NCBI GenBank assembly: GCA_949296475.1
Contig: CASFOK010000001.1
Location: forward strand, 20,535 to 84,534
DNA from: an uncultured Pseudomonadota bacterium
GTDB taxonomy: Bacteria; Pseudomonadota; Alphaproteobacteria; Rs-D84
Reading direction: 5' to 3'
Length of the DNA: 64,000 bases
Shown here: piece by piece, positions 3,597 through 47,063 of the stretch
Numbering within the stretch: position 1 is the first letter of the stretch
Layout of the letters: the number at the start of each line of letters is the position of its first letter
Program-made: the position numbers and the translations under genes
Notes under the pieces: model-generated
Seen by the model: the letters and a program-made list of their open reading frames with translations, nothing else
The model's database searches: none
Told to the model about the DNA's origin: nothing

Positions 3597-4772
3597 ATGA
3601 AAAGGTTGGTTGGGATTTTTCTTGTTACATATTTTATGTGTGGCACTGCTTTTGCGGCGCAGTACAAGGCCGCTTTGGTTGCAGATATGGATAGCGGGCG
3701 AATACTTTATCAGGAAAACGCAAACGTTCAAAATTATCCAGCCAGTTTGACTAAGATTATGACTTTGTATTTAACGTTTGATGCGTTGGAACACGGACGT
3801 TTGCATTTAGACGATTATTTGATTGTATCACAATCTGCGGCGGCTGCGTCACCTGTTAAACTGGGGTTGACCGCAGGCAGTAAAATAAAAGTAGAAGATG
3901 CGATAAAGGCTCTGACGGTGTTAAGTGCTAATGATGTCGCGCGCGTGTTGGCAGAAAATTTGAAAGGCGGAAAAGAGGGGAATTTTGCAGAACTAATGAC
4001 GCGCGTGGCGAATGAAATTGGTTTGTCTGGGACTAATTTTGAAAACTCGTCTGGGTTGCCGAACGATGACCAATTATCAACTGCGCGTGACATAGCGTTA
4101 TTATCCATGGCGATTTATAAGCATTTCCCTCAATATTGGAAGTATTTCAGTATCAAAACGTGGACTTATAACGGTAAAACGTATACTAACGGAAACAGGT
4201 TGTTGGGGACTTATCCGGGGTGCGATGGCATGAAAACGGGTTATACCAATAAATCGCGCTATTCGTTGGTTGCAACGGCTAAACGTGATAATCATCATTT
4301 AATATCCGTTGTTTTGGGCGCTGAAAACAAAGATGTTCGTGCAAATACCGCGGCAAAACTGTTAAACAAAGGTTTTGCTATGGTTGATAGTGGCGATGTG
4401 CCTTCTATGTCGCAGACTTATTACGCGCCTGCGCAAACTGTTGATTATTCTGCGCCGACGTTTAAGGCGGCATATAACGCTGCTACAACTGGTGCGTCGC
4501 AATATAAAACAGTTGATAATTATGCGGATAATAAGTCCGATAACAACTTAACTGCTGGTGGGGCGGGTGTGCAGTTTGGTGCTTTTTCTTCGCGCAGTGC
4601 CGCGCAAAAACAGGTCAGCCTTGTTAAGAATAAACTGGGCATCAGCACGGTAATTGAAGATGCGCCAAACGGAATGTATCGCGTTCGCGCAAACGGTTTG
4701 TCAGACAGTTCTGCGCAAAATGTAAAAAGCAGGGCAGACAACGCCGGAATTGATTGTTATATATTTCACTAG
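3597..4772 (+). CDS. dacC: D-alanyl-D-alanine carboxypeptidase (PBP5/6 family) with C-terminal SPOR domain
   Basis: Signal peptide. SxxK motif (ASLTKIMT). SPOR-like C-terminus (GVQFGAFSSRSAAQ...YRVRANGL). Confidence 0.85.
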   Translation: MKRLVGIFLVTYFMCGTAFAAQYKAALVADMDSGRILYQENANVQNYPASLTKIMTLYLTFDALEHGRLHLDDYLIVSQSAAAASPVKLGLTAGSKIKVEDAIKALTVLSANDVARVLAENLKGGKEGNFAELMTRVANEIGLSGTNFENSSGLPNDDQLSTARDIALLSMAIYKHFPQYWKYFSIKTWTYNGKTYTNGNRLLGTYPGCDGMKTGYTNKSRYSLVATAKRDNHHLISVVLGAENKDVRANTAAKLLNKGFAMVDSGDVPSMSQTYYAPAQTVDYSAPTFKAAYNAATTGASQYKTVDNYADNKSDNNLTAGGAGVQFGAFSSRSAAQKQVSLVKNKLGISTVIEDAPNGMYRVRANGLSDSSAQNVKSRADNAGIDCYIFH

Positions 4773-8021: not shown

Positions 8022-8573
8022 ATGAAAAACAAGATATTAAAATATTGTGCAATAATACTGGGTATTATATTATTGGATCAGTTAACAAAAGATTTTCTGC
8101 TTTATTTGATAACGGGTTCTGTTCCTGCATTTGGGGCTGCATGGGCGATTGTGCCTGTACCTTATTTAATGACGCAGGTTGGGGACTTTTTTAATATAGT
8201 ATTTACTTGGAATCCGGGCGCATCGTTTTCAATGTTGCGCGCTGTGGGCGAAGCGGCACCGTTGCTTATTATCGTCATAACGGGTTTTGTAATTGGTGTT
8301 ATTGCGTATTATTTGTTTGCGCGTGCAAAGTCTTATGAAAGGTTTCCTTTGGCGTTAATAGTTGGCGGTGCATTGGGAAATTTGATTGACCGGATAAGAT
8401 TTGGTGCGGTGATTGACTTTTTAGATTTTCATGTTGGCGGTTGGCATTGGCCTGCGTTTAACGTTGCGGATATGTGCATAGTAATTGGCGTTGGTTTGTT
8501 TATATTGAATTGGTACTTGGCCAGACGTCGTTGCGTGGAACAAGTAAAATCAAAAGAAAAGGGTGGTAAATAA
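8022..8573 (+). CDS. lspA: lipoprotein signal peptidase II
   Basis: WNPGASFSM, GNLIDR and FNVAD motifs. ATG at 8022 is preferred over the TTG-extended ORF from 7941. Confidence 0.85.
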   Translation: MKNKILKYCAIILGIILLDQLTKDFLLYLITGSVPAFGAAWAIVPVPYLMTQVGDFFNIVFTWNPGASFSMLRAVGEAAPLLIIVITGFVIGVIAYYLFARAKSYERFPLALIVGGALGNLIDRIRFGAVIDFLDFHVGGWHWPAFNVADMCIVIGVGLFILNWYLARRRCVEQVKSKEKGGK

Positions 8574-8575
8574 TC

Positions 8576-10150
8576 ATGGTAAAGTATTTAGATAATAATT
8601 CTGGCTTTCAGCAATGGAGTGCGAATAAGTACGCACAAGAAAAGTCAAAATCACGTTGGGGTACTTTTTTTTGGTGGTTGATGTTGTTCTTGGCAGCGTG
8701 GTGGTTAATTGGCGTTATGATGGGACCGAAACCAGCCGCTGAAACCGCAGAAGACGCAACCGTGGTCACAGAAGATTTGTCTGGCGTTCCTGTGTCAGAG
8801 ATAAAGTCTGATGACATTACCGCCAACGTTCAGGGGTTGCGAATTTATGATGTAAAATTATTAAATTTTGCTCAGGACAGTTCCGTCGCGGATAGCGGAC
8901 CTGTGTCTTTGTTATCCCAAGACGGCGCATTTGCCGAGGTTGGCATTTTATCACCGGGCACATCTGCCCCTGTTGCGAAAACCGTGTGGAAGAAAGACGG
9001 TGATACATTTGTCTGGCGTAATTCTGATGGTATTGAATACCGCAGACAGATAAGTGTAGACGGGTATTTAATTTCCGTGTCGGACACAATCAAGAACGCT
9101 TCGGGTAAAGACATCAGTGTTGCACCGTACGCCAGAATCGTTCGTGCAAACGATGTCGTTTCGTCTGCGGGCGTTTACACCGGTGCAATTGCGTATGCTA
9201 ATTCAGATATAGAACGAGACGATTGGCACGACATAGACAAAAAGTCTTTTGCATATTCAACGACAACCGGTTTTATTGGTTTCGCAGATCAATATTGGGA
9301 AACGATTGTATCTGTGGACAGTCCGGACCAGACGTTGCGTATAAAAAAGACGGGTGATTTGTATCAGGCGGACGTTGCGGCAAACGCCGTTTCCGTATCT
9401 GCCGGGGAAAGCAAAACAATAACGACGAACTTGTTTGTCGGCCCGCGTGAACAGCGCGTATTAGATTTAGTGTCTGCCAAGATTGCCGGCATAGACGATA
9501 CGATTGATTACGGATGGTTTTGGTTCTTGGCGCGTCCTATGTTATGGGCGTTAAACGGTTTGAACTCAATTGTTATGAACTATGGCGTAGCGATAATAAT
9601 ATTGACGATATTGTTACGTATTTTGATGTGGCCGCTTACCAGAAAGTCTTATACTTCAATGATGGCGATGCAAAAGATGCAGCCGGAACTGACGCGCATA
9701 CAAAAATTATACGGTAACGACAAGATGCGCTTGCAGATGGAAATGATGAAACTGTATCAGACGCACAAGACTTCACCGATGTCAGGGTGTTTACCTATGT
9801 TGATACAGATACCAATTTTCTTTGCGTTGTACAAGGCGTTATTGATATCTGTTCAGATGCGCAGTGCCCACTTTTTATGGATATCTGATTTAGCGACCAT
9901 GGACCCATATTTCATATTACCGATATTGATGGGGGCAACCATGTGGTTACAACAATATTTACAGACGCCTGCGAAAAGTAACGGTTCTGTGAACGATGCG
10001 GTTGCGCAAACACAAAAGGTTATGAAATGGATGCCGTTATTATTCACAGTTATGTTTGCGTGGATGCCTGCGGGTCTGGTGTTATATTGGACGATGTCAA
10101 ACGTTTTCGGCATCGGCCAGATGTATTACATCAAGAAATTTAACAAATAA
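8576..10150 (+). CDS. yidC: membrane protein insertase YidC
   Basis: 524 aa with a large periplasmic domain and the conserved C-terminal 5-TM core. Confidence 0.9.
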   Translation: MVKYLDNNSGFQQWSANKYAQEKSKSRWGTFFWWLMLFLAAWWLIGVMMGPKPAAETAEDATVVTEDLSGVPVSEIKSDDITANVQGLRIYDVKLLNFAQDSSVADSGPVSLLSQDGAFAEVGILSPGTSAPVAKTVWKKDGDTFVWRNSDGIEYRRQISVDGYLISVSDTIKNASGKDISVAPYARIVRANDVVSSAGVYTGAIAYANSDIERDDWHDIDKKSFAYSTTTGFIGFADQYWETIVSVDSPDQTLRIKKTGDLYQADVAANAVSVSAGESKTITTNLFVGPREQRVLDLVSAKIAGIDDTIDYGWFWFLARPMLWALNGLNSIVMNYGVAIIILTILLRILMWPLTRKSYTSMMAMQKMQPELTRIQKLYGNDKMRLQMEMMKLYQTHKTSPMSGCLPMLIQIPIFFALYKALLISVQMRSAHFLWISDLATMDPYFILPILMGATMWLQQYLQTPAKSNGSVNDAVAQTQKVMKWMPLLFTVMFAWMPAGLVLYWTMSNVFGIGQMYYIKKFNK

Positions 10151-10553: not shown

Positions 10554-10904
10554 CTATTGTTCAATCCAACCGCGTTGTTTTGCGGCGTTTTCTAGCACCT
10601 GCATTGCGCGTCGCCATAAATCTGCGTCGTGATTTTCGGCCCATATGTATTGATGAGGCGCGCGTCTGCGGTCACCAAATTTTTTCATTACGTCCAATTG
10701 TTCTTCGGTTATTCGGCCGGAAAGGTATAGTTTTGTAATCAAAGATTCTACGTCTAATAATTCGCACGGACGTTTGGTGCAATTTGTTCTTGTTCGCAAG
10801 AAACCGTTTTGTACAGATTTAGAATACAAGAACCAAAACCACAATTGTTCTGCGTTTTGAAATTTTTCTGCGGTATATAAAGTTTGTATGTTTTGCGATG
10901 TCAT
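10554..10904 (-). CDS. hypothetical small protein (116 aa). It is the promoter-proximal neighbour of the T4SS core operon but lies in a separate transcription unit.
   Basis: Not AT-biased junk: Trp-rich (WFWFLY), balanced composition. No family recognised by eye. Confidence 0.45.
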   Translation of the reverse strand: MTSQNIQTLYTAEKFQNAEQLWFWFLYSKSVQNGFLRTRTNCTKRPCELLDVESLITKLYLSGRITEEQLDVMKKFGDRRRAPHQYIWAENHDADLWRRAMQVLENAAKQRGWIEQ

Positions 10905-11101: not shown

Positions 11102-11201
11102 AGAAAAATCATATTTAACTTTGTTTATATTGTTATAGTTACACCTCCTATGATTTTCAATATTGGTTAAAAACAAACCCGCCAAATTGGCGGGAACTTG
11201 T

Positions 11202-13652
11202 TTACTTTATGGGTGGGAAGCAATCGCCACCTGTTTCTGGACAGCAATTGAAGCCCTGGTCGCCCATATCTGTATAAATTTCACCTATGCAGCAACCGTA
11301 TTCATCTGGGATTGTGCCGTCGGGGCACGTTAATACGTTCGTAGTTGTTTCCACGGGCAAGGTTTCCGTACTGGTATTATCTTGGAACGGGTTTTGAATA
11401 ACCCCATCTTCATAAGTTAAACCAAGTATATCTTCATTATATGCCTGACTACCACTTATTCCTGTTAAACCTGTTCCTGTACCAAACTCGGAACCTGTAC
11501 CATAATTTGCTTGGAATTGTTGTTGTTGATTTTGATACAGTGCATCTTGTTTTGCGTTGTTTATCGCTTGGTAATTTAGCGACTGACAATATGCCAAAAC
11601 AGTTCTGTAATCATAACCAGATTTATAAATTTCTTCTATTTTGTCTTTATTAATCTCAAAAAGACCGTTAGAATCTTGTTTGCAATATTCTTCTCTCAGA
11701 TTAAACGAACGTACCTGACCAACCCACGAAGAATCTTCATAATCTACATCTACAGAAGAGGGTTTCTTATTCCATTCATCATTACGTAGATTGCGATTAT
11801 CCAGCCTGGTGTTTTCTTTAACGTTTTTAACAGAACATTCTTTTGTGTTATCGTTGCCACATGTAATTACCAAATCTTCTGGTGAAAATACGGTTATACG
11901 TGTACCAGCTGCAATTGAAAATGGTGGTATTGTATTGTCCATTGCATCAACCAGTAATTTCTGTGCAACCTGATTCCATGCAGTTATTATTTCATTCTTT
12001 GCAAGCTCAGAAGAACGTACTGTACCTGATTGAACAACTGTATTGTTATCCAAATCAATTTGGTTAACAAACGTATCTGCGATTGGTGCAATCATATTTA
12101 CCGCAGCCGGAACAATCGCAGTCAGCATTGGCATAACAATTTGTTCAACATAGTCTGTACTGCCATGCCCCGGAACCCCCGCGCGCCCCTGTGAGTCGCC
12201 AGAAAATGGGTTGTTATCATGAAAATTGAATTCAACACCATTTGGTAATATAAATTGATACCATTCTATTTGCATACGACCAATTGATTTATATGGTCCA
12301 GGTAATTCACCGGTTACATATCCCAACAGCAACGTACCAGTTGGTATAATAACAGTACGACCATCATCAGAATATACGTTTCTATCAACTGTTGCGCGTA
12401 CTGGTAATGTTTGCTTTTTACATGTTCCTGTTGAATCGCAACCATATAAAGAAGGGTCTGCGCGAACTTCGGATACGATTGTTGCAGGAATTGGTTTATA
12501 TTGTCTTAATACAAACTTTCTATCAAATGGGTCGGATGAAAAAACCGCGCTTTTACTACTGCTGCCTATCTGAATTTCAGTTTCAGGATTGTTTAATGTT
12601 ATTCTAAAAATATTGCCTGTTTCTGTTGTTGCATCGGCGCTTTGTGGTAACGCGGCCAATTCGTCGGCTGTTAATTGCCGCGCAAGATTTTTTTCTTTTT
12701 TAGGTGCAGGATTTGATAATTGCGGAATTTCACGATTTATAACGTTGGTATAACCGATGTGTTCCGCATCTGTTCCTATTTTCGTAATATTATCGTTGAT
12801 GTCTGTTATTATACCTGTATCAGGATTGTATACGCCTGTCGGGCTGTCACAATTTTTATCTGAAAAAGGATGGTAATAATACGCGCCTGCTTCTGGACGA
12901 ATCCAACCGCTTTGCACACCTGATAAGTTGTATCCAGGAAACGCAAAGTCAGAACAAGACTCTGCCGGTTTTGCAGGTTGCGTTTCAGGTGCGGTTTTGG
13001 GCGACACATCTATAAAGGGATCCGATGGTGCAATTTCTTTGATTTCTTGTTTTATTTCCTGCTTTACCGTTTTAACAGGCTCGGGTTCCGGTTGGGGTTC
13101 GGGTTCTGGTTGTGGCGCTGGTTCTGGTTGCGGTTCTGGTTCTGGCGCCTTTTGTGGTGTATCGGCACTGACGATGACGTTCGTCTTTGTTGACTTTGTC
13201 ATCGCATCGGGTTCTTGGGTACCGTGCCACTTTACAACCAGTTCAACAATTTTCGTAGATACATCACTTGTCGGTTGATAGTCCAAGGTAATTGTACACT
13301 TATTTTTAGCATCTATCTGATTTTTAGCAACGCATGTTTGATTCATGCTTAAACCAGGAACCTGTTCAAGAAAGTTTACTTCAACGATTTTTGTTGGGGC
13401 GTTGGTTGATAAATTAACTTGTCTGGTGGTCTTGGTCCCAACCATTGTGTTTGACATGTCTATAATTTCTGGGTCAAACTTTAGTTGTATCGCCACCGAT
13501 TCAGTCGTTTCAATTTTTTCTTTTTCTTTACTTGTTAACAGCAACGTTAACAGAATCATTACAACGACAAACGCAGCCGCCAATAACAACCACTGAACAT
13601 GCTTTGGCGTATTTTTACGTAAATCAGAAATTTGTTGTTTTATAGTACTCAT
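11202..13652 (-). CDS. virB10: Type IV secretion VirB10/TrbI-family protein. At 816 aa it is atypically long. It has an N-terminal TM, a PEPEPQ repeat, a canonical TrbI C-domain, and an extra Cys-rich tail of about 225 aa.
   Basis: From memory, VRATVDRNVYSDDGRTVIIPTGTLLLGYV, SQGRAGVPGHG and PFSIAAGTRITVFSPEDLVI match VirB10 C-terminal domain signatures. Confidence 0.8.
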   Translation of the reverse strand: MSTIKQQISDLRKNTPKHVQWLLLAAAFVVVMILLTLLLTSKEKEKIETTESVAIQLKFDPEIIDMSNTMVGTKTTRQVNLSTNAPTKIVEVNFLEQVPGLSMNQTCVAKNQIDAKNKCTITLDYQPTSDVSTKIVELVVKWHGTQEPDAMTKSTKTNVIVSADTPQKAPEPEPQPEPAPQPEPEPQPEPEPVKTVKQEIKQEIKEIAPSDPFIDVSPKTAPETQPAKPAESCSDFAFPGYNLSGVQSGWIRPEAGAYYYHPFSDKNCDSPTGVYNPDTGIITDINDNITKIGTDAEHIGYTNVINREIPQLSNPAPKKEKNLARQLTADELAALPQSADATTETGNIFRITLNNPETEIQIGSSSKSAVFSSDPFDRKFVLRQYKPIPATIVSEVRADPSLYGCDSTGTCKKQTLPVRATVDRNVYSDDGRTVIIPTGTLLLGYVTGELPGPYKSIGRMQIEWYQFILPNGVEFNFHDNNPFSGDSQGRAGVPGHGSTDYVEQIVMPMLTAIVPAAVNMIAPIADTFVNQIDLDNNTVVQSGTVRSSELAKNEIITAWNQVAQKLLVDAMDNTIPPFSIAAGTRITVFSPEDLVITCGNDNTKECSVKNVKENTRLDNRNLRNDEWNKKPSSVDVDYEDSSWVGQVRSFNLREEYCKQDSNGLFEINKDKIEEIYKSGYDYRTVLAYCQSLNYQAINNAKQDALYQNQQQQFQANYGTGSEFGTGTGLTGISGSQAYNEDILGLTYEDGVIQNPFQDNTSTETLPVETTTNVLTCPDGTIPDEYGCCIGEIYTDMGDQGFNCCPETGGDCFPPIK
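13081..13150. repeat. tandem hexanucleotide repeat (ggttct/ggttgc) encoding (PEPEPQ)n in VirB10
   Basis: Direct reading of the sequence. It translates on the minus strand to PEPEPQPEPAPQPEPEPQPEPEP. Confidence 0.8.
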
Positions 13653-13673: not shown

Positions 13674-15221
13674 TTACTGTATTCTGACGACGCTGCAACT
13701 TACCCCTTGGGACGCGGTTAACTTGTCACACAGCGTTTGTGCAGTGTCAATATCTGACATCGGCCCTATGCGTAAACGATACAAACGCGCCGTAGAAGAT
13801 TCAGAACCTAAATCGCCAACACCTTGGGCATCAACCGCAAAGAATACCATGTCTTTATAAGGTGTCAGCAAGCCTTGACCGCTGTCACCGCTGAACTTTG
13901 CCAGCAAAGTCGTCCAATAATCTTCCAGTGCTTTTACAGACGTGTCAGACTTCAGTTCTACGGCAACGCCAGATTGGTTCGTGGTAATCAGCGGTATGTT
14001 TGACTGTGGTAAGAAAGAACCCGCAGTTAACCTTTCAGTTGGTATCATTGAAACGCCACTGCTGCCGCTGCTGGTACCATAATTTGCAGCCGGAACGCCG
14101 TAACCCGCCGGCATGTAATATCCAGTTGTTGTGCCACCGGTCATATTATTGCCAACAAACATTGGCGTAGTGGTATAATTACCCACACCATAGTTCATCG
14201 CTGATACATCTGCGTTATACGCAATATTGTTTAAAGATTGTCCGGACATCATGCTTTGGGCAACATTCGCCTCGGCCAATGCCATGACAGATGCTGTGTC
14301 CGCAATCAAGAACGGTTTTTCACGTTTCTTTATGCAGACGATACGTTGACCGCTGCGCAATACCATATCGCCGACCGCTTCTACTATTAACAGACGACCG
14401 TCTTCACCATCCGTGCGGAAACCAACAGGTGATTCACCGCCTTCTACCAGTAAAGAAACAACCGGTCTTTGCGTCATAGATATAACTTTGTCGCCAAAGT
14501 CTATGTACGTAAATATTCTATCGCGCCAGACGCGTTCAGGCGCAATTACATAATCATCTGGGTTGGGTACGAATATATCTAAGTCAAACCTGAACTCTGA
14601 CGGGTCAATTTTCATGGATTTTATCCACCCATAGTCTTCGCCGTCAACACCGACGGTATTGCTGTCCACCGAAGATACCGTTTTAAATATGGACGATGAA
14701 CCGCCCACAGCCACGCCTGTTGAACCGCTGGCATTTGGTAATACCGCGTTATTGTCCAATACGACTTCTACTTGAGAATACGTAACCTCGCTGGCGTTTG
14801 AAGGTTCGCTGCGCAGATAGAATATGTACTGATTGCCGGATTTTCCAGTTACAATAAAGTTCGTGTCAGAACCTTGGTTACTTTTTTCCGGGGTGATTAG
14901 TATGGTGTTACCGCCCTTGGTTGCGTCAAAGGAAAATAAGTTCTTGTTGCCAACCACTGCATCTTCTATTTGTTCGCCGTTTGGCAACGTTATCATCGTT
15001 ACCATGCCGTTACGCAGTTTAACGGGTAAAACCGTACCCTTGGACCATGTCAATTGCGCATATCCGGGCTTCATACTGCCGGCGGTCATGTTTGCAGATG
15101 GGTTATTCCAAGCGTCTTGCACGCCATAATTAGTCGCAATTGCGTTGCCTGATATACAAACAGAGCAAACCAAAAAGAAACAAAATATAGATATATTTAA
15201 CTTTGCACCTGTTGAAAACAT
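13674..15221 (-). CDS. virB9: Type IV secretion VirB9/TrbG-family protein (515 aa). It has a signal peptide, VirB9 N- and C-domains, and a 210-aa extension ending in a SPOR-like module.
   Basis: GNTILITPEKS...DTNFIVTGKSGNQYIFYL corresponds to the tNLxVxTdkRtYxFxL signature. IFTYIDFGDK...LLIVEAVGDMVLRSGQRIVCI corresponds to the VirB9 C-domain. The C-terminus LYRLRIGPMSDIDTAQTLCDKL...CSVV is SPOR-like. Confidence 0.75.
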   Translation of the reverse strand: MFSTGAKLNISIFCFFLVCSVCISGNAIATNYGVQDAWNNPSANMTAGSMKPGYAQLTWSKGTVLPVKLRNGMVTMITLPNGEQIEDAVVGNKNLFSFDATKGGNTILITPEKSNQGSDTNFIVTGKSGNQYIFYLRSEPSNASEVTYSQVEVVLDNNAVLPNASGSTGVAVGGSSSIFKTVSSVDSNTVGVDGEDYGWIKSMKIDPSEFRFDLDIFVPNPDDYVIAPERVWRDRIFTYIDFGDKVISMTQRPVVSLLVEGGESPVGFRTDGEDGRLLIVEAVGDMVLRSGQRIVCIKKREKPFLIADTASVMALAEANVAQSMMSGQSLNNIAYNADVSAMNYGVGNYTTTPMFVGNNMTGGTTTGYYMPAGYGVPAANYGTSSGSSGVSMIPTERLTAGSFLPQSNIPLITTNQSGVAVELKSDTSVKALEDYWTTLLAKFSGDSGQGLLTPYKDMVFFAVDAQGVGDLGSESSTARLYRLRIGPMSDIDTAQTLCDKLTASQGVSCSVVRIQ

Positions 15222-15239: not shown

Positions 15240-15923
15240 TTATATACTCGTTTCTACTGAATAACCGGTATCCAGTGGGTCACCGTTTCCAGAATCTATT
15301 TCGTATTCCGAAACGCGAAGCCCCAGCGGGTTATTCAAACGATCTGACCAGTCTATTCGTGCGTTATCGCTTTTATCCACTTTTATTTTTATTCTATACT
15401 CTTTTTTATCCGACTGTCTATCATTATCTGCACAGAAATAATAAAATTTTACAATATATGTGTCTTCTGCGTGCGGGGTTAGTGCATTATTATCAAATTC
15501 CACGCTGCAAGAAAACTCAAAATCCGGCAAGTCAGACATCCAAGCGTTCCACATATTGGTTTGCGTAAATTCGTTATAAACTTCCTGGGTTGACCATGCG
15601 TGAACAATACTGTCTGGTCCATCGTTATTCCATTTTGTGCGCATTAGCCCCGCATTAGGTACGATTTCGTTTCTTGCCTTGACGTATTCCAAGATGAACG
15701 CTTTTTCATAGTTTATGAAATTTTCATCCGAAGGCGCCATTTCTCGCAATACGATTTGCAGATCGCTTTTTGGACGAGACATCAAGAAAAATACTTGTGG
15801 GCGATTTACGGGAAACATATTATATAACGTAAACAGCAACGCAACCAACACAACCAGCATTCCTGCGAACACGAATGTCATCAATCTGGATAGCAAAATT
15901 GGCGGTTCTATGCGGTCTTGCAA
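15240..15923 (-). CDS. virB8: Type IV secretion VirB8/TrbF-family protein (227 aa, bitopic)
   Basis: Short cytoplasmic N-terminus, a single TM, a periplasmic domain, and a C-proximal NPLG motif (RLNNPLGLRVSEY). Confidence 0.7.
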   Translation of the reverse strand: MQDRIEPPILLSRLMTFVFAGMLVVLVALLFTLYNMFPVNRPQVFFLMSRPKSDLQIVLREMAPSDENFINYEKAFILEYVKARNEIVPNAGLMRTKWNNDGPDSIVHAWSTQEVYNEFTQTNMWNAWMSDLPDFEFSCSVEFDNNALTPHAEDTYIVKFYYFCADNDRQSDKKEYRIKIKVDKSDNARIDWSDRLNNPLGLRVSEYEIDSGNGDPLDTGYSVETSI

Positions 15924-29337: not shown

Positions 29338-29418
29338 ATTGTTTTTATAGGAATAGATGAATATTGATATTGTTTAAAATTTAAGCGATTTTTGTATTGT
29401 ATATAAAGGTTGTATAAT

Positions 29419-32112
29419 ATGAAAAAATCGCTTGTTTTTGTGTCGCTTATTGTTTGTTCAAGGGCGTATGCCACGGATGTAGATAATTTTACCGATTTTT
29501 ATAACGCGTATAAGAATTATGCGACAGAAAACAGCATAACTATAACAGGCGACATAACGTCAACGCGTTTAATCAGCGTACCCGGTGCAGAAAGTACGAT
29601 AATTAACGGGGGCGGTTTCGGTTTTGATGGCGGGGCATTTAACGGCTTTACGGTGTCAAGTGGGTATACAATGTCTTTGACGGACGGGGGCGGTTTTACT
29701 GTTTCTGGTCAAACGGCCAATGTGAATAGTTCTTTTAATAATTTTTATCAATCTGGACAAGGGGCGGTATTTGCAAACCTTGGTGGTAGTTTGACTGTAT
29801 CTAACTCTGCGTTTACAAATAATTCTGCACGTTTAGGGGGCAGCGTTTTTTATCAAAGTAATAATGCTACTTTGAACGTGTCGGATAGTGTTTTTGATAC
29901 TAACACCACAACGCGAAATGGCGGTGTAATATATACACAATACGGTACGAATGCGATTATAAACAACAGTTTTTTTCAGGGAAATTCAGCCAGTCAATAT
30001 GGAGGGGTTGCGTTTAATGACGGTAATTTGACTATATCTAATGGTGTGTTTGTTTCAAATACAGCATCAAGTGGTGCGGCGATATATAATTCTAATACGA
30101 TTACATTAAGCGATGTTTATTTCTCTGGAAACACCGGCAGTCAAGGCGGTGGTGCAATTTATAGCACGGGTATGATGAATCTTGAAAACGGTATATTTGA
30201 AAATAATACAGGTCAAACGGGCGGGGCGATTTCAAATTATGGCATAGTGGGTGATACTTTATATGCAGTGATAAAAAATGCTAGTTTTACAGGTAACAGT
30301 GCTACATACGGTGGTGCGGTGTATAATTGGGATGATATGTATATAATAGATAGCAGTTTTACAAATAATTCTGCAACAGATAATGGCGGTGCAATATTTA
30401 ATTTAAATGCGTTGTTTTTGATTGCTCAGAACGCGGATATCGTATTTAGCGGAAATACAGTATCCGGTGAATCTAATGCGATTTATTCGTCTGAATCGTT
30501 ATTTTTAAATGCGGCGCCACAATATCAGATAACTTTTAATGACAAGATTACAGGTTCTGGTTCGTTGATTGTGAACAGAGCATATGAACTGGAAAATGAT
30601 ACAATGCCAGCCGGAGGTACCATAGTTCTAAATGAAGATATGTCAGGGTTTACAGGGAACGTAACAATAGAATCCGGCATTGTAACAGTTACAGATAGCG
30701 GTAATTTTTTTAATGCAAACGATTTAACTGTTTCAGGTGGCGTTTTAAATTTAGGTTTAACAAATGCAACGGTTACTTCTGCAAACTTTCAATCTGGTGC
30801 GACTTTACGTTTGTCTGTTCAAGATGTGGATAATTATGGTTTTTTAACGGCGGATTCGTTTAATATATCTGAAAACGCCGCAATAGATGTGATTCTTGGC
30901 AGCAGTGCTATGGATGGCGTCAGTTCTCTGCGATTACAATTATTGCGCAGCAGTCAGGTTATAACGGATAATTTCTTTCCGGAAATAAGCAATAATATTT
31001 ATGATTTTATAAAACTTGGTAATGGTTGGTACGAAATTGTTCAATCAAGTTCAGTCTTGGATGTTATAAAAAACGCCGGAGGAACACAAAATAATGAAAA
31101 TACCGCGCTTGGATGGCAGGATATGTTGCTGACCGATAACAGCGTAACGAATGAAGTTTATGAAAAACTAAATGAGTTGGTTCAATTAGATGCGGTTGAG
31201 TATATAAAGGCGTTAACTGCTTTGGCGCCTTCACCTGCGCCACTGATGCAGATACTTGGTACTGCATATATTGATAGACTTGATAATATGGTGCACGATA
31301 GGCAAGAATATTACGTTGGTAACGGAATATTGTGGGGTTCGTTGTTTGGTTCGGGTGGTAAATTAAAAGAAAATAATTTTTATGCGGACTTTGATATACA
31401 TGGTTATGGTTTAGGCTTTGGTGCCGAATATAATTTTGATAATTGGGACGTTGGTGCCGCGTATACGTATCAGTACGATAAATTGGCAAGTTGGGCAAGG
31501 TCAATTATTGCGCCTACACATGGCATAGGGCTGTATGCAAAATATGATAACCGAAGTTTCATTTGGAATAATTATGCCGGTTTCTTTTATACGGATATGG
31601 ATGAAACGAAAAACGTTGCGGGAATACACTTGTTTGATAACACGGATGTTTATACAACTGGTGTGTGGTCTGACATAGGTTATGTTGTACCTGTTTATAA
31701 ACTAAATTTTATCCCTTACATAGGTACTCGGTACATGTCGGTGCATCGTGGTTCTTCTGTTGATACAGCAGGTCAAGAAATATCAAACGCAAATTTAGAT
31801 TTTTTAACCACGTATGCAAGATTGTCCGCAGAATACAATTTCAGTTATGACGATGAATTGACGATTACGCCTATAATAGAATTAGGGGCATCATATGATT
31901 GGCACGCGGCTGTTGAAGATATAAACGTGCTTATAATGGGAAATGAATATTCTATTGCTACACAACGTTTATCGCATTGGCAAACGTCCGGGGGCATAAA
32001 ACTAAAATTAGGTGTTGGTGAAGTTTACGACGTAACGTTCGGTGCAGATTTTTCCGTTAGACAAGGGTATTATAACTATTCTGGTAATATACACGGCGTT
32101 TTAAGGTTTTAG
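29419..32112 (+). CDS. autotransporter with Pmp-type (Chlam_PMP-like) repeat passenger and C-terminal beta-barrel
   Basis: Signal peptide MKKSLVFVSLIVCSRAYA. At least 8 FxxN...GGA[IVL][FY] repeats. The C-terminal roughly 280 aa is rich in alternating aromatics and ends in F (GVLRF). Confidence 0.75.
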   Translation: MKKSLVFVSLIVCSRAYATDVDNFTDFYNAYKNYATENSITITGDITSTRLISVPGAESTIINGGGFGFDGGAFNGFTVSSGYTMSLTDGGGFTVSGQTANVNSSFNNFYQSGQGAVFANLGGSLTVSNSAFTNNSARLGGSVFYQSNNATLNVSDSVFDTNTTTRNGGVIYTQYGTNAIINNSFFQGNSASQYGGVAFNDGNLTISNGVFVSNTASSGAAIYNSNTITLSDVYFSGNTGSQGGGAIYSTGMMNLENGIFENNTGQTGGAISNYGIVGDTLYAVIKNASFTGNSATYGGAVYNWDDMYIIDSSFTNNSATDNGGAIFNLNALFLIAQNADIVFSGNTVSGESNAIYSSESLFLNAAPQYQITFNDKITGSGSLIVNRAYELENDTMPAGGTIVLNEDMSGFTGNVTIESGIVTVTDSGNFFNANDLTVSGGVLNLGLTNATVTSANFQSGATLRLSVQDVDNYGFLTADSFNISENAAIDVILGSSAMDGVSSLRLQLLRSSQVITDNFFPEISNNIYDFIKLGNGWYEIVQSSSVLDVIKNAGGTQNNENTALGWQDMLLTDNSVTNEVYEKLNELVQLDAVEYIKALTALAPSPAPLMQILGTAYIDRLDNMVHDRQEYYVGNGILWGSLFGSGGKLKENNFYADFDIHGYGLGFGAEYNFDNWDVGAAYTYQYDKLASWARSIIAPTHGIGLYAKYDNRSFIWNNYAGFFYTDMDETKNVAGIHLFDNTDVYTTGVWSDIGYVVPVYKLNFIPYIGTRYMSVHRGSSVDTAGQEISNANLDFLTTYARLSAEYNFSYDDELTITPIIELGASYDWHAAVEDINVLIMGNEYSIATQRLSHWQTSGGIKLKLGVGEVYDVTFGADFSVRQGYYNYSGNIHGVLRF

Positions 32113-33462: not shown

Positions 33463-33487
33463 AAAAATCCCCAAATGGGGATTTTTT
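33463..33487. terminator. bidirectional terminator between convergent mraZ and the 785-aa gene
   Basis: aaaaatcccc-aaat-ggggatttttt. Confidence 0.65.
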
Positions 33488-35843
33488 AGGGTTCTTCATC
33501 AGGGTCACATGTGTTTGTTTCGGAATTATATGTCCCCGTGTTGCATACGCAACTTGGATAAGTCCCTGTTGAATCAGCCGGGCAAGTGGTTGTCACAGCG
33601 TCTGCGTCACATGTGTTGGTTCTTTGGTTATAAGTATATCCTGCATTGCACTGACAGTTAGGATATTTTGAACCCGCTTGTGCGTTTGCCGTCGGGCATG
33701 ACATACATACGTTAGATGTTGGTATATATGTTGCCGATGAACTGGTGCAAACACAATCTGGGTAAGTACCACTTGCATTAGAAGGACAAGTCGGATTTGA
33801 TAATACCTGACCAACCCAGTTTGCCATATCAGAAACGCTTGTTCCTGTTGCGCCTGTTGCAGACATACATGTGGTTATATTGGCTTTACATGCGTTGATA
33901 GCGATGTTTATGCTTGTTGGATTTAATGTATTATAATTATTCTGTGCCAAGCAAGAAGATACGTCTGTTATACATGTTTCTGCATATTCTGATAACAACG
34001 AGTCTTGGGCAGACTTAATTTGTATCAGCGTGCGGTTCAAGAACTCTTTTATCACGTTGTTTGTCGGATTGTATTTCAGGTTTTGACCCGTGCCAGTATA
34101 AGTAATATCTTGGCATTTGTTTAATACAGACATGCACATGCCGTAATTTTTGCCGTCTTTGTCGTCGTGGTATCCGATTTTGTTTTGTAAAAATGCGGAC
34201 ATATTTGTAGACGGACTTTGTGAAGCGTTGGCAGTAACCGTGTTTGTTATGTATTCGCTTAGTAAGCCTGAATCACCCCAAGCATTTTTATTGTTATCGT
34301 ATGTCCATGTTTGATATATTTCACCGTTGTCAACGTCACCTGGAACGCCTGGTTTGCTGCCGATGACTATTTCGCCGTTTACGATAAACTTACCTGTTGG
34401 ATCCAAACAGTTTTCATAATCGCTGCCACAGACAAAGTCGTCCTGCATGCAAGAATCCAACGCATTTACGCAACCGCGTAAATCATAAGCGTTCTTTTGT
34501 TGTGCAACCAATAAACGTGCCTTTTGTAAAACGCTTTTTGCGTTTCTGACGGTCGCGCTCATTTGGTCATTAGAATCAGTTAAACTGCGTTCATATATGA
34601 TACATTGCTTATCAATTTCCAAATCATACGAATTTGTTATGACCGTGATATCAACGCCTTGGGCTGCGCAACTGTTTAATACAGATGCTTTACAACGAGC
34701 CGCCGCCGTTTTATACAGTTGTTCGCCACGTTGATTGCTGATGCTGCTGGTGTCCGAAGAAGTGCCCAGTAATGCCCCTAAATCAAAACCAGTGCTGTCA
34801 ATCGTAAAGTCCAGTAACCCTGTTAAGTCCAGACTTAAACCGCTGGTCGTTGTAGAAGATGCTTTTCCTGTTTCAACGTCAATAATCATCTTTTTGATTT
34901 TGTCCAGGTCGTTTTTCAGCTGAGTATTATCAGTTGTCGTCTGCATTTCTAATTCAGCCTCGGTCTGTGTGAACAGCGTTTCTATTTCATCGGAACTTAG
35001 ACCTATGTATTGGATTTTTTGGGCGACGTCTTGCAGTTCTTCGGTTGCTTGTTTCAAAGCAGCCTCTGTTTCTGCGTAATTTTTCAAGTTCGCACTGCAA
35101 CTGCAACGACCTTGGTTATCATCTAATACGTTACAGAAGTTATCCATACAAGAGGTATATTGTGCCTTACAAAAATCTGTAATCTGTGCCAATTCATCTA
35201 ACGACATGCTGGAAGAAGTATCCGTCGTGGTTGTAGTTGTTGTCCCAGCGCGAATCGTCGGGGTGCGCGAACGAACAGCAGACGTACTTGTTCCTACGCG
35301 GCTGCTAACGTACAAGGGGGTTGCAACGGTGTCGGTCTGAACAATTGATGCTCTTGCATTTTGTGCCCTGTTATTATTGGTAGAACTTTGGCGCGTTGTC
35401 ACTGTCTGCACGGGCGCAATAGAACGAGCAGAAGTAGTCGCGGTACTTCCTGTTGTCGTTGGACGCCCAGACGATACCGTTCTTGTTGAAGTTGCGGTGT
35501 TAACCGTGTTCGTTGCTGTCGTTCTTGCAGTAACTGTACGCGCCGGTGAAACTGTTCTTGTTGTTGTGGTATTGCGACTGCTTGTCGTGCTAGTAGAAGG
35601 GATTGCACGTGAAGCCGTTATTCTACCTGTTGCAGTACGCGGACTTACAGATGTTGTCGTAACAGGAACAACCGGGGCCGCTTGCTTTGTTTCTGTTTTT
35701 TCTTCTGCGACCTGTTCTTCCTCGGCAGGTGCAGAGTATTCGTCAGAATACTCCATCACTTCTTCGTAATAATAAGCAGGTGCAACCTCGGCAAAAGCGG
35801 GTAAAACCAACAAGCCACTAAGTACTGCGATAAATCTTTTCAT
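33486..35843 (-). CDS. secreted 785-aa protein. It has a signal peptide, an acidic stretch, a roughly 190-aa Thr/Ser/Arg-rich low-complexity region, a coiled-coil-like segment, and a large Cys-rich C-terminal region with 3 tandem roughly 26-aa Cys repeats.
   Basis: MKRFIAVLSGLLVLPAFA signal peptide. The region RTVSPARTVTARTTATN... Repeats of the form G[ST]YPxCxCxxG.TYN..TNTCD. Confidence 0.7.
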   Translation of the reverse strand: MKRFIAVLSGLLVLPAFAEVAPAYYYEEVMEYSDEYSAPAEEEQVAEEKTETKQAAPVVPVTTTSVSPRTATGRITASRAIPSTSTTSSRNTTTTRTVSPARTVTARTTATNTVNTATSTRTVSSGRPTTTGSTATTSARSIAPVQTVTTRQSSTNNNRAQNARASIVQTDTVATPLYVSSRVGTSTSAVRSRTPTIRAGTTTTTTTDTSSSMSLDELAQITDFCKAQYTSCMDNFCNVLDDNQGRCSCSANLKNYAETEAALKQATEELQDVAQKIQYIGLSSDEIETLFTQTEAELEMQTTTDNTQLKNDLDKIKKMIIDVETGKASSTTTSGLSLDLTGLLDFTIDSTGFDLGALLGTSSDTSSISNQRGEQLYKTAAARCKASVLNSCAAQGVDITVITNSYDLEIDKQCIIYERSLTDSNDQMSATVRNAKSVLQKARLLVAQQKNAYDLRGCVNALDSCMQDDFVCGSDYENCLDPTGKFIVNGEIVIGSKPGVPGDVDNGEIYQTWTYDNNKNAWGDSGLLSEYITNTVTANASQSPSTNMSAFLQNKIGYHDDKDGKNYGMCMSVLNKCQDITYTGTGQNLKYNPTNNVIKEFLNRTLIQIKSAQDSLLSEYAETCITDVSSCLAQNNYNTLNPTSINIAINACKANITTCMSATGATGTSVSDMANWVGQVLSNPTCPSNASGTYPDCVCTSSSATYIPTSNVCMSCPTANAQAGSKYPNCQCNAGYTYNQRTNTCDADAVTTTCPADSTGTYPSCVCNTGTYNSETNTCDPDEEP

Positions 35844-43932: not shown

Positions 43933-45414
43933 ATGAGAGTCAGTGTAGTTTCTTTGTTAAGTGTTTTTTTTATGCCTTTCGTTGCGTTGGCGTCTAACGA
44001 GGGGGTGCCTTCTTATTATCAGAACAATTCAACAACGACGGTTAATCGTTCGGCATATAATCAATATCAGCGACAAGGATACACGACATATGTTGGTCAA
44101 TCGGGGGGCAAGCAAATTGTTGAAAGTCGTTCTTACTCTTATCAGGTTCCGCGACCGGTGGTCCCGCAAATTAGCGGTACGATGACGACGAACGGTATTG
44201 CGATGCCTGTTGCCGAAGAAGCGGCAACATCTGTATATGCTAAATATGCCAGAAGATTTGCAGATTTTGAATTTGAAACAGGTGTAAATTCCGTCTTGGA
44301 ATGGGATGATATGATTTACAATGAAATTGGTGTTGGCGTACAACATAATTTCAGTTTGCGTAATTTTGATATGTTTGCTTACGGTGAATATAGTATGGGG
44401 TATATGTCACATGGTGGACTGTCCATGGATTATGACTTAAAGCCGTATGATGAATCAGACCCTTCTTATGGAATTTTCACTATTTCTGTTGGCGATCAGA
44501 CGGGCAAGACAAATCACTTGAAGTTAGGAATCGGCGCACATCATATTTGGGACATTGGCGGATGGAAGTTATCCCCGTCGTTTGGTTATGAAATTTTCAA
44601 TCATAACTTGGAAATGTCAGATCATTTGTATCCCAACCCTGGCATCTTTTTACCGTTAATGACGAACATGGGCGACTATGTTTACGGTGATGTAAATGGT
44701 AATTATTATGCTTTACCCATAAATATGGAGGCACCAGAAGATTGGTATCAGGTGTGTATGTCACCGGAAGATATAAAACTGGTTCAGGCCCCCGCAGGTG
44801 GTGCAATAATTGACCTGGGGACAGAGTTGGTAACCGGCGATTACAATCCGGATATGGGGTATGTACCATGGGGTGTAGATTCTGGTGAATGTGTAATTAT
44901 TGGCGGTGATGGTCCTATACTTGTAGACGGTACTACGCATATTTATAATACTACGTGGAGCGGTTTTTATATCGGGCTTGAGATAGAAAAACAAATGACC
45001 CTTGTTGACAAGTTGCGTTTTTATTTCCAGGTTGGTTTGCCGAAATATTCATCCGAAGGTATCTGGCCAAACAGAACGGATTGGCAACAAAACCCCAGTT
45101 TTATAGATGAGGGTAGTAACGGTGCGTACTCTTATACCGCGGAAATGGAGTATAACTATAAATTATCAGACCGTATGCAATTGGCAATAAAAGTAGATAC
45201 CGATTATTTCTATGTCGGAAAAATCGGCGGGGAATTATATTTGGCGGAATATAGTCAATATTTAGTTGATGAAAACGGTTTTTACATATTGGACGATAAC
45301 GGTTTCCCAATTTTAGAAACTGTGCCGGCCAGCACGCAGTATATCAGCGAGCAGTTAAAACACGCTGCGTGGCAATCGTTTGGTTTGCATATCGGAATAA
45401 AGTATTCTTTCTAA
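43933..45414 (+). CDS. putative outer-membrane beta-barrel protein
   Basis: Signal peptide. Gly/Tyr-rich. C-terminal ...IGIKYSF. Confidence 0.5.
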   Translation: MRVSVVSLLSVFFMPFVALASNEGVPSYYQNNSTTTVNRSAYNQYQRQGYTTYVGQSGGKQIVESRSYSYQVPRPVVPQISGTMTTNGIAMPVAEEAATSVYAKYARRFADFEFETGVNSVLEWDDMIYNEIGVGVQHNFSLRNFDMFAYGEYSMGYMSHGGLSMDYDLKPYDESDPSYGIFTISVGDQTGKTNHLKLGIGAHHIWDIGGWKLSPSFGYEIFNHNLEMSDHLYPNPGIFLPLMTNMGDYVYGDVNGNYYALPINMEAPEDWYQVCMSPEDIKLVQAPAGGAIIDLGTELVTGDYNPDMGYVPWGVDSGECVIIGGDGPILVDGTTHIYNTTWSGFYIGLEIEKQMTLVDKLRFYFQVGLPKYSSEGIWPNRTDWQQNPSFIDEGSNGAYSYTAEMEYNYKLSDRMQLAIKVDTDYFYVGKIGGELYLAEYSQYLVDENGFYILDDNGFPILETVPASTQYISEQLKHAAWQSFGLHIGIKYSF

Positions 45415-45426
45415 GAAGGTGTTCAT

Positions 45427-46506
45427 ATGGCAGTTAAAAGTGTTGTTGCGCGCCTTTGTGGCGTTGCGTTGTTTTGTGTGGCCCCGCTTAACTTGTGGGC
45501 GGGTGCCGGCGTTTTTGATATAGACAGATGGTATGCGATAATTGAAGATATCAAAGGCAAGGCCGCCAGTCAGAATATTTCGCAAGATACGATAAATGCG
45601 ACATTTCGTTCGCCGGCGTTTATACCTTCTATTGTAAAAAGCGACAGAAATCAAGCAGAGTTTAAATTAACCTTGGATGGGTATTTGGCGCGTACAGTTA
45701 ATCAGCGCAGAATTACAGAAGGTAAAAAAATGCGTCAAACTTATCCTACAATGCTATCGCGGGTAGAGCAGAAACATGGCGTTCAACCACATGTGATATT
45801 GGCGTTTTGGGGTTTGGAATCCAATTATGGCGCTAATAAAGCACGTCATAAATTAACGGATGCGTTTTTGACTTTGATGTATGAGGGGCGCAGGCAAGAG
45901 TTTTTTGAAAAGCAGTTATTGGCACTGATGAAAATAGCAGATGATAATGAATTGGACATAAATGATATTCAAGGCAGTTGGGCGGGCGCGATGGGGCACT
46001 TTCAGTTTATACCGACAACATTGATGCAGTATGGTGCAGACGGTAACGGCGACGGTAAAATAGACATTATTCATAGCGTTGGCGATGCAATGTTTAGTGC
46101 TGGCAACTATTTAAATCGCCTGGGTTGGAACGAGAACGAAAAAATAGTTCGCAAGGTTGTCATACCAATTAATTTTGATACGTCTTTATTGGACGGCAAA
46201 ACAAAAAAGAATTTGTCAGATTGGGCGAATATGGGCGTTACGAATCCTGACGGCAGTCCGTTACCTGTTATGGATATGACGGCTGGTTTGGTGGCGGATA
46301 TAAATATGATTAACGATGCCAAGGCTACGGCGATTGCGCACAGTAAATCAAACGTCATAGACCCGAATGCGATTGATACTGATGTTGCCCCACAACCTGT
46401 TGTTGTTGCTTATTTAACATACCCCAACTTTTACAGGATAAAACGTTGGAATAATTCTAATTGGTATGCGATAGCGATTGCGACATTGGCGGATGAATTG
46501 AAATGA
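45427..46506 (+). CDS. lytic murein transglycosylase (MltB/SLT_2 family)
   Basis: ILAFWGLESNYG motif, signal peptide. Confidence 0.8.
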   Translation: MAVKSVVARLCGVALFCVAPLNLWAGAGVFDIDRWYAIIEDIKGKAASQNISQDTINATFRSPAFIPSIVKSDRNQAEFKLTLDGYLARTVNQRRITEGKKMRQTYPTMLSRVEQKHGVQPHVILAFWGLESNYGANKARHKLTDAFLTLMYEGRRQEFFEKQLLALMKIADDNELDINDIQGSWAGAMGHFQFIPTTLMQYGADGNGDGKIDIIHSVGDAMFSAGNYLNRLGWNENEKIVRKVVIPINFDTSLLDGKTKKNLSDWANMGVTNPDGSPLPVMDMTAGLVADINMINDAKATAIAHSKSNVIDPNAIDTDVAPQPVVVAYLTYPNFYRIKRWNNSNWYAIAIATLADELK

Positions 46507-46607: not shown

Positions 46608-47063
46608 ATGTCTCGTCAAGTTCAGTTCAGGCGCGGCAGTGCTGTTGAACACGATAGTTTTATCGGCGCCGAAGGCGAAATAACCGTAGATACAACAAAC
46701 AATACGTTGCGGGTTCATGATGGTGTTAACCCCGGCGGTTTTGCCTTGGCGCGTCAAGATTTAGTTGGTGATACCGTTGTTGATACTTTTGTATCCGAAG
46801 ATGGTGCTTTTTGGTATCGTAAATATAAGTCAGGCTGGCTAGAACAAGGGGGGATTTCTGTTAGTGCGAATATCATTTTTCCGGTGTCTTTTATGAATAC
46901 TAAATATACAGTCATGGCGTTGCCGGTAATGATTGACGGCGGTGTTGGAACGATATCCGTAAGTTACGCCAACAAGATAAAAACAAGCATAAGCATACAA
47001 GTTCGTTGGAATGGTGGTGCCGTAGATGATGCGTCCAGAATGTGGTTCGCATGCGGTTTTTAA
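46608..47063 (+). CDS. phage tail-fibre-like small protein (Mtd_N-like N-terminus plus tail-collar-like C-terminus)
   Basis: QFRRGSAVEH...GAEGEITVDTTNNTLRVHDGVNPGG matches the RRGT...GE...DT...DG tail-fibre N-motif. C-terminus ...MWFACGF. Confidence 0.5.
   Translation: MSRQVQFRRGSAVEHDSFIGAEGEITVDTTNNTLRVHDGVNPGGFALARQDLVGDTVVDTFVSEDGAFWYRKYKSGWLEQGGISVSANIIFPVSFMNTKYTVMALPVMIDGGVGTISVSYANKIKTSISIQVRWNGGAVDDASRMWFACGF

Follow-up and report, generated by a model that had tools for sequence, protein, structure and literature searches.

A VirB9 homologue with a C-terminal SPOR-like module in gut Alphaproteobacteria of the order Rs-D84

The DNA analysed here, referred to below as the window, is a stretch of 64,000 nucleotides from an uncultured alphaproteobacterium of the order Rs-D84 (assembly GCA_949296475.1, contig CASFOK010000001.1, positions 20,535 to 84,534), and positions are those of the window unless a locus is named. 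At 13674..15221 on the minus strand, it carries an open reading frame (ORF) of 515 codons plus stop encoding a VirB9 homologue, in which Pfam recognizes both the CagX and the SPOR families. Canonical VirB9 and VirB10 form the periplasmic and outer layers of the outer-membrane core complex of the type IV secretion system (T4SS). In the window protein, the VirB9 core is followed by an extension whose end, judged from sequence comparison and structure modelling, is a folded SPOR-like module representing a complete domain. The present analysis establishes the fusion, its match to the SPOR family, the fold prediction, its conservation and its phylogenetic spread. By analogy with the AMIN domains of PilQ and with DotK, we consider it slightly better than an even bet (a probability of roughly 0.55) that the module binds peptidoglycan at the end of a tether and anchors or positions the outer-membrane core of the T4SS.

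The protein begins with a predicted Sec signal peptide (residues 1-29, MFSTGAKLNISIFCFFLVCSVCISGNAIA, followed by T; 15135..15221, minus strand), read from a hydrophobic core and a subsequent A-I-A motif, and AlphaFold2 (AF2) models an N-terminal helix at residues 3-24. The N- and C-terminal beta domains of the VirB9 core occupy residues 56-299 (14325..15056, minus strand), where Pfam PF03524 (CagX/VirB9) aligns over positions 5-197 of its 198 with 81.5 bits (gathering score 34.2, E 9.5e-23); the same profile is matched by 47/47 members of the clade. With the NCBIfam equivalog TIGR02781 (VirB9, P-type conjugative), the protein scores 57.8 bits against a cut-off of 217.7, which by sequence places it in a divergent subfamily and not among the VirB9 equivalogs.

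As the initial annotation of this DNA had proposed, the protein is extended by about 210 residues (306-515; 13674..14306) beyond the PF03524 core, and the two strings quoted there, MVLRSGQRIVCIKK and LYRLRIGPMSDIDTAQTLCDKLTASQGVSCSVV, are both found in the 515-residue translation. The extension opens with a conserved segment predicted to be helical (residues 306-343; 14193..14306, minus strand), for which AF2 gives helices at 309-326 and 330-343 with low confidence; in the clade alignment, column identity reaches 1.0 over residues 301-320 and 0.85 over residues 321-340. A low-complexity linker follows (residues 344-395; 14037..14192, minus strand), with a pLDDT below 50 and predicted to be disordered, and its G/T/Y/N-rich character, also recognized at the outset, is clear: G, T, Y, N and S make up 67% of it vs 37% of the whole protein. 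Of all parts of the protein, this linker shows the lowest conservation (column identity 0.59-0.70). Within the Candidatus Enterousia clade, the C-terminal SPOR-like module (residues 396-515, about 120 residues; 13677..14036, minus strand) is conserved to about 90%, while the linker drifts; such a pattern, in which a variable linker connects conserved domains, is the signature of a tethered functional domain. We also observed that residues ~193-320 (14262..14645, minus strand), i.e., the C-terminal beta domain and the helix after it, are nearly invariant (column identity 0.96-1.0) among species that are just 73-84% identical overall, far above the conservation of the N-terminal domain.

Both checks suggested in the initial annotation, a search with the SPOR profile and a structure prediction, gave positive results, i.e., a SPOR match and a folded rather than a disordered tail. 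Pfam SPOR (PF05036) matches residues 475-513 (13683..13799, minus strand; profile positions 38-76) with 27.2 bits and an E-value of 4.9e-06, the gathering score being 21. At E <= 0.01, SPOR was detected in 44/47 clade homologues and in 9 of the 21 distant fusion proteins, and in the Pfam scans of these two sets no competing family matched the tail. Two of the distant proteins, P0125 (profile positions 3-76) and P0146 (5-75), align over nearly the full length of the profile, with scores below the gathering cut-off. AF2 modelled residues 397-515 with a mean pLDDT of 76.4 and a pTM of 0.72 in a beta-alpha-beta-beta-alpha-beta topology of the RNP type, the strands spanning 418-426, 459-463, 481-488 and 510-514 and the two helices 429-443 and 491-505, and a run with the full-length protein gave the tail the same secondary structure. 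Among solved structures, the best matches of the tail model were the SPOR domains of RlpA, CwlC and DedD.

The fusion extends well beyond the source genome. The VirB9 homologue has more than 1,400 homologous clusters, and a relative is encoded in 257 species-level genomes; the related loci derive from gut metagenome-assembled genomes (MAGs) labelled Candidatus Enterousia or uncultured Alphaproteobacteria/Rickettsiales. The best match is 97% identical, and one relative lies on a closed, circular 958,618-bp chromosome. Enterousia is part of the GTDB order Rs-D84, whose genomes are smaller than 1 Mb, have lost most biosynthesis, rod-shape and peptidoglycan genes and probably belong to partner-dependent organisms (PMC12306168); that study says nothing about secretion systems. 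Searching 1.84 billion cluster representatives yielded 472 VirB9 relatives, and the best 150 of these 472 were used for a census of the tail. Using a locally iterated hidden Markov model (HMM), we located the tail module at the C-terminus of 35 of the 150, down to about 33% overall identity. Approximately 24 more of the 150, mostly high-GC (group B), share the terminal helix-Cys...Cys-strand motif; over 84 columns, their final 95 residues aligned with the module profile in hhalign (probability 97%, E 5.8e-11), and a search with group B proteins as queries gave 49 matches. A quick and rough neighbour-joining tree of the VirB9 core places essentially all the tail-bearers in one half and leaves the other half tail-less, which is consistent with one ancient acquisition of the tail followed by its retention.

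Among the carriers are a large sister clade of Alphaproteobacteria from gut MAGs, with VirB9 proteins of 530-680 residues, and plasmids of cultured Sphingomonadales, namely, p1 of Sphingosinicella sp. BN140058 (430 residues; locus L084, 8428-9720) and a plasmid of Erythrobacter aureus (432 residues; locus L085, 8332-9630). The VirB9 proteins of these two plasmids match the tail HMM at E ~3e-19, and neither annotation nor Pfam flags their tails. On both plasmids, the conjugative virB2-B11/virD4 locus is complete, and that of Sphingosinicella also contains a MobA/MobL relaxase gene. A tblastn search of 72,556 plasmids with the window tail as query gave no match, and in the same set the Sphingosinicella tail, at BLAST sensitivity, found only itself and the Erythrobacter plasmid.

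In those parts of the open-access literature and of bioRxiv full text that were accessible, we found no description of a SPOR module on VirB9, TrbG or RvhB9. A SPOR-like fusion on VirB9 is apparently undescribed, and the co-occurrence is latent in databases, since some members in public protein collections already bear the automatic tags PF03524 and PF05036. The earlier suggestion of an undescribed arrangement thus holds for the literature covered here, but the arrangement is a trait of a large VirB9 subfamily and not of this genome alone.

In the structure of the RlpA SPOR domain with denuded glycan, recognition occurs mostly through main-chain contacts, and a basic patch (RlpA R302/R309/R311; FtsN R285) contributes to it (PMC6895207). 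The highly conserved hallmark Gln of strand 1 (RlpA Q270, FtsN Q251, DamX Q351; profile position 8) hydrogen-bonds, in RlpA, the free lactyl carboxylate, which is the defining mark of denuded glycan, and the adjacent N-acetyl group (PMC6895207). The window itself supplies a reference for this consensus: a DacC-type D-Ala-D-Ala carboxypeptidase (3597..4772, plus strand; Peptidase_S11) ends in a canonical SPOR domain matched over its full length (32.1 bits, residues 321-389), in agreement with what had been noted earlier. Pfam position 3 corresponds to DacC residue 321, so its hallmark residue is Q326.

In sequence, the VirB9 tail keeps basic residues of the beta-sheet. Its beta3 motif, [YF]R/HLR[IV]GP, includes an invariant Arg, and its C-terminal C-x-VVR-x-Q motif includes a second conserved Arg. 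R482 and R484 of strand 3 and R513 are invariant in the clade, and the beta3 Arg is invariant across the distant tails and DacC, with which the tail also has in common a Cys located in strand 4 or beside it; in the FtsN SPOR domain, the strand-4 Cys is C312 (PMC6895207). Two Cys of the tail are invariant, C498 in helix 2 and C509 preceding strand 4, and by analogy with the FtsN SPOR disulfide, these two residues may form a disulfide, although in FtsN the pair lies in strand 1 and strand 4. Overall, the tail resembles the SPOR domains of proteobacterial FtsN, DamX, DedD and RlpA and of Bacillus CwlC in passing the Pfam gathering score and in its topology. It differs from the canonical domain of about 75 residues in having longer helix1-strand2 and strand2-strand3 loops by insertions, which bring it to about 100 residues, and in its host, which is a secretion-system subunit instead of a divisome or wall-hydrolase protein. 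In its scaffold and its basic residues, the tail is SPOR-like, and we regard its binding to peptidoglycan glycan strands as likely.

We propose that the VirB9 homologue would act as a subunit of a VirB/rvh-type T4SS in a gut alphaproteobacterium with a reduced genome (Candidatus Enterousia, Rs-D84). Sec would export it, and its two beta domains would, as expected from homology, join VirB10 in the outer-membrane core complex. Each copy would carry, on a tether of about 90 residues formed by the helical piece and the flexible linker, a SPOR-like RNP-fold domain of about 100-120 residues, probably stabilized by a Cys498-Cys509 disulfide. This domain would reach the peptidoglycan beneath the outer membrane, a span from the outer-membrane-proximal ring for which such a tether is well suited, and bind glycan strands through its beta-sheet face (Arg482, Arg484 and Glu422). 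With one tail per VirB9, the resulting multivalent ring would fasten the core complex mechanically to the sacculus; alternatively or additionally, it might limit assembly to wall of a given chemical state or age, such as septum-derived or polar wall. Peptidoglycan binding, the periplasmic location and the role in anchoring or positioning are inferences.

Two known systems provide functional analogies and experimental precedents for both consequences. The AMIN domains of PilQ attach to peptidoglycan and bring the type IVa pilus machine to sites of future division (PMC5285504). In PilQ of P. aeruginosa and M. xanthus, the peptidoglycan-binding module is fused to the outer-membrane channel subunit of a machine that spans the envelope, which it directs to septal or polar wall and may anchor, and the VirB9 tail would be comparable; unlike the VirB9 tail, the PilQ modules have the AMIN fold, are N-terminal and in tandem and belong to a secretin channel, and their binding and localization are experimental, whereas those of the VirB9 tail are predicted. 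DotK of Legionella is an OmpA-like lipoprotein of the Dot/Icm core; it binds peptidoglycan in a manner sensitive to N-acetylation and helps to fix the type IVB machine at the cell poles (PMC10266036). Like DotK, the VirB9 homologue would contribute a peptidoglycan-binding component to a T4SS outer-membrane complex; in contrast to DotK, which is a lipoprotein of its own, has an OmpA-like domain and serves a type IVB system, the VirB9 module is SPOR-like, is covalently fused and belongs to a type IVA (VirB/rvh-like) system.

Several observations weigh against the proposed anchoring role, and some of them concern the assignment of the domain. In the window VirB9, Pfam aligns just the second half of the SPOR profile because the first half (strand 1, helix 1 and strand 2) has diverged and the loops contain insertions. 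The initial annotation had likened the tail to the second half of a SPOR domain; the SPOR-like module is real, but the whole domain is present. PDB-chain searches with full-length, tail and mixed profiles gave no significant SPOR match (CwlC, E 0.089), so the SPOR assignment rests on Pfam and the fold comparison; such insignificant matches from sequence searching are unsurprising for so divergent a family. In these searches, the VirB9 N-terminal domain gave a weak match to R388 TrwF (7o3j_B, E 0.0039). Comparing the tail profile with DacC as a single sequence in hhalign gave no information (probability 0.3). Pfam SPOR gives no match in the tails of group B or of the Sphingomonadales, so their homology rests on the local HMM and hhalign. 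Additionally, the AF2 input alignments, of 20 and 47 close homologues, had little depth, and the predicted structure of the VirB9 C-terminal domain is poor (pLDDT ~25), so the model does not fix the point at which the tail leaves the core complex.

Other observations concern the ligand and the machine. Unlike in canonical SPOR domains, the hallmark Gln is replaced by Glu422, which is invariant in the clade and stands opposite DacC Q326 in an explicit alignment (AVELKSD vs GVQFGAF); all 35 tail-bearing representatives have Glu or Asp at this position, and the aromatic residue after strand 1 (profile position 12) is lost in the VirB9 tails. Because the Gln normally reads the carboxylate of the ligand, an acidic residue should disfavour denuded glycan. 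A classic, FtsN-like specificity for septal denuded glycan is doubtful on these sequence grounds, and the tail ligand is probably not identical to classic denuded glycan, given that the hallmark Gln is Glu. For the same changes, anchoring to septal or denuded peptidoglycan, as it had been formulated earlier, is not established. Finally, no virB4, virB11 or virD4 was found within 10 kb at 80 Enterousia-clade loci (elsewhere in Enterousia genomes, no search was made), so a complete T4SS in the source genome is not demonstrated.

The best-surviving alternative, which we regard as a possible but clearly less probable explanation, is that a SPOR-derived fold has ceased to bind peptidoglycan and now serves as a protein-protein or assembly domain inside the T4SS, with the extended VirB10, VirB8, VirB6 or a ring of neighbouring VirB9 tails as possible partners. 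The family-wide replacement of Gln by Glu or Asp and loss of the position-12 aromatic would fit this explanation, as would the half-profile Pfam coverage in the window VirB9 and the distant members without a Pfam match. The family also has conserved motifs of its own outside the SPOR consensus (xExLG, W in helix 1, LRxGP and C...C.VVR.Q), and the atypical VirB10 proteins (816 residues in the window; 2,354-2,831 in the sister clade) could be co-evolved partners. Nevertheless, the solved folds nearest to the tail are specifically those of peptidoglycan-binding SPOR domains and not those of other RNP-fold proteins, and basic residues of the beta-sheet are kept in the sequence. A long flexible tether is also better suited to reaching a separate layer than to docking within the complex, and the Sphingomonadales plasmids have the tail together with a far less extended VirB10 (~530-550 residues).

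A bolder and rather unlikely possibility is that the tail represents a new SPOR-like specificity class ('E-type'), in which the acidic residue and the conserved arginines would read another mark of the sacculus and, through a 14-16-fold ring, dictate the site of the T4SS and fix it there. Candidate marks would then be de-N-acetylated sugars, with their free amine, or peptide-bearing strands. If correct, type IVA systems would have a built-in address label, where type IVB systems use DotK and peptidoglycan deacetylation.

It is improbable that the tail is displayed at the surface or released toward a partner cell, as an adhesin that binds the wall or a glycan of another organism for a contact-dependent T4SS. 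The Rs-D84/Enterousia genomes, smaller than 1 Mb, deprived of most biosynthesis and with a proposed dependence on other cells, would suit such a role (PMC12306168). The Gln-to-Glu change suggests a non-canonical ligand, and the invariant Cys pair would stabilize an exposed domain. However, this explanation is poorly supported, and in the solved core complexes, the outer membrane is spanned by VirB10 and not by VirB9. The presence of the module on ordinary conjugative plasmids of free-living Sphingomonadales also points to a housekeeping role within the machine.

An artefact or decaying remnant, i.e., virB9 joined to a downstream SPOR gene or a chance match in a disordered tail, might be suspected from the modest (27 bits) and partial SPOR match and from the metagenome-type genome of the window, but it is effectively excluded, since the same architecture of about 510 residues occurs in hundreds of independent clusters, in 257 species-level genomes and in complete plasmid sequences of cultured strains, with a module that is highly conserved, predicted to be folded and SPOR-like in structure. 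On these grounds, we rejected a chance Pfam match (conservation, predicted folding and SPOR-like structure of the tail), a disordered tail (AF2 pLDDT 76, pTM 0.72), a fusion by assembly error or frameshift (recurrence in many genomes and complete plasmids) and a feature peculiar to the source genome (occurrence across the VirB9 subfamily).

The virB9 homologue lies between virB8 and virB10 homologues. The first gene, virB8 (15240..15923, minus strand), encodes 227 residues from a TTG start (Pfam VirB8 PF04335, E 1.5e-12, residues 3-210), and the last gene, virB10 (11202..13652, minus strand), encodes 816 residues (Pfam TrbI PF03743, E 2.2e-17, residues 385-595). Directly 3' of the virB10 stop codon, a consensus scan located a terminator-like hairpin (CCCGCCAATTTGGCGGG, then a T-run; 11178..11194, minus strand) with a 7-bp stem and six G-C pairs, which is a pattern match only. 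Because the three genes are consecutive on one strand and are followed by this hairpin, virB8-virB9-virB10 is a three-gene operon. It is flanked by yidC at one end and by the tRNA-Trp/secE/nusG/rplKAJL/rpoBC cluster at the other, and beyond the single virB8, virB9 and virB10, no further recognizable T4SS gene was found in the 64-kb window. In related loci, virB8 is 5' of virB9 in 79/80 cases, and the order nusG / virB8-virB9-virB10-orf116 / yidC is kept in the clade, with all six genes present in 57/80 loci and the others truncated. Just downstream of the virB10 terminator, we observed an ORF of 116 residues without a family match (10554..10904, minus strand), which occupies the same position in 73/80 related loci.

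In its two-domain core, its predicted signal peptide and its placement between virB8 and virB10, the window protein is like canonical VirB9/TraO/TrwF of A. tumefaciens VirB, pKM101 and R388. These proteins have about 270-300 residues and end soon after the C-terminal beta-sandwich, whereas the window protein runs about 210 residues further. The window VirB10 contains a Pro-rich PEPEPQ region, the TrbI domain at residues 385-595 and a C-terminal extension of about 220 residues ending in a Cys-rich stretch, and its score with NCBIfam T4SS_VirB10 is below the cut-off.

The rvh T4SS is characterized by duplicated RvhB4, RvhB8 and RvhB9, a multicopy RvhB6 and the absence of VirB5 (PMC11077975). The systems described here resemble it in being alphaproteobacterial, host- or partner-associated and encoded by scattered T4SS genes in a reduced genome. 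In the rvh papers examined, RvhB9-II lacks a C-terminal domain or has a degraded one, and no SPOR tail is described. Enterousia has a single virB8 beside virB9 and, in the window, a single virB9, whereas virB8 is duplicated in the sister clade. There, the gene order is virB4, five genes without a Pfam family, virB8, a gene for a 66-residue lipoprotein, virB8, virB9-SPOR, a gigantic virB10 and virB11; the lipoprotein between the two virB8 genes has a LAVSC lipobox and is VirB7-like. The portion from the first virB8 to virB11 resembles the rvh gene order of Rickettsia (PMC4676284), and one such locus, L081 (GCA_017507765.1 / ERZ27317164 contig, 8230-9965), has this rvh-like layout in a gut lineage outside the Rickettsiales.

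The VirB10 proteins of the sister clade reach 2,831 residues (L081, 11614-20109) and 2,354 residues (L083, 11825-18889). A scan of the former showed about 20 Bflower_2 and 4 Bflower beta-flower repeats and DUF3659 repeats, followed by a C-terminal TrbI domain; for the latter, the same families appear just weakly or faintly in precomputed Pfam tags. These extended or gigantic VirB10 architectures look highly unusual.

The remaining genes of the window are those of an ordinary chromosome, i.e., pyrG, pyk, dacC, recR, ksgA, lspA, plsX, mraZ and glycosyltransferase genes. Some of its other products are worth recording. A protein of 900 residues with Chlamydia polymorphic-membrane-protein (PMP) repeats (29410..32112, plus strand) and a 493-residue member of the Protochlamydia outer-membrane protein (Pom) family (43933..45414, plus strand) are surface proteins typical of host-associated bacteria. 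A SLT_2 lytic transglycosylase (45427..46506, plus strand) is directly followed by a protein of 151 residues (46608..47063, plus strand) that combines the phage Mtd_N domain (major tropism determinant, N-terminal) with a C-terminal domain of the Gp53-like tail-fibre type; such a phage-like receptor-binding protein is odd in a genome of less than 1 Mb. An ORF of 785 residues (33486..35843, minus strand) has no credible Pfam family, its weak FTA4 match (E 0.0018) being below the threshold.

It is understood only in part how type IVA systems cross the peptidoglycan, attach to it and are placed in it. Lytic transglycosylases (VirB1) and, in type IVB systems, a separate OmpA-like lipoprotein, DotK, are known to take part. 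Peptidoglycan-binding modules on envelope-spanning machines are of a well-known kind, and a SPOR-like VirB9 tail with Glu or Asp in place of Gln is a new variation and not a new principle. If the proposed role is correct, a subfamily of VirB9 would have a wall anchor or address tag built into the core complex. The occurrence of the same module on conjugative plasmids of cultured and tractable Sphingomonadales makes it directly testable. The systematic change from Gln to Glu or Asp also amounts to a natural experiment on the ligand specificity of SPOR domains. Enterousia/Rs-D84 bacteria are abundant, uncultured and probably partner-dependent members of the gut community, and an unusual T4SS core that is strongly conserved among them, its extended or gigantic VirB10 proteins included, may be central to their lifestyle.

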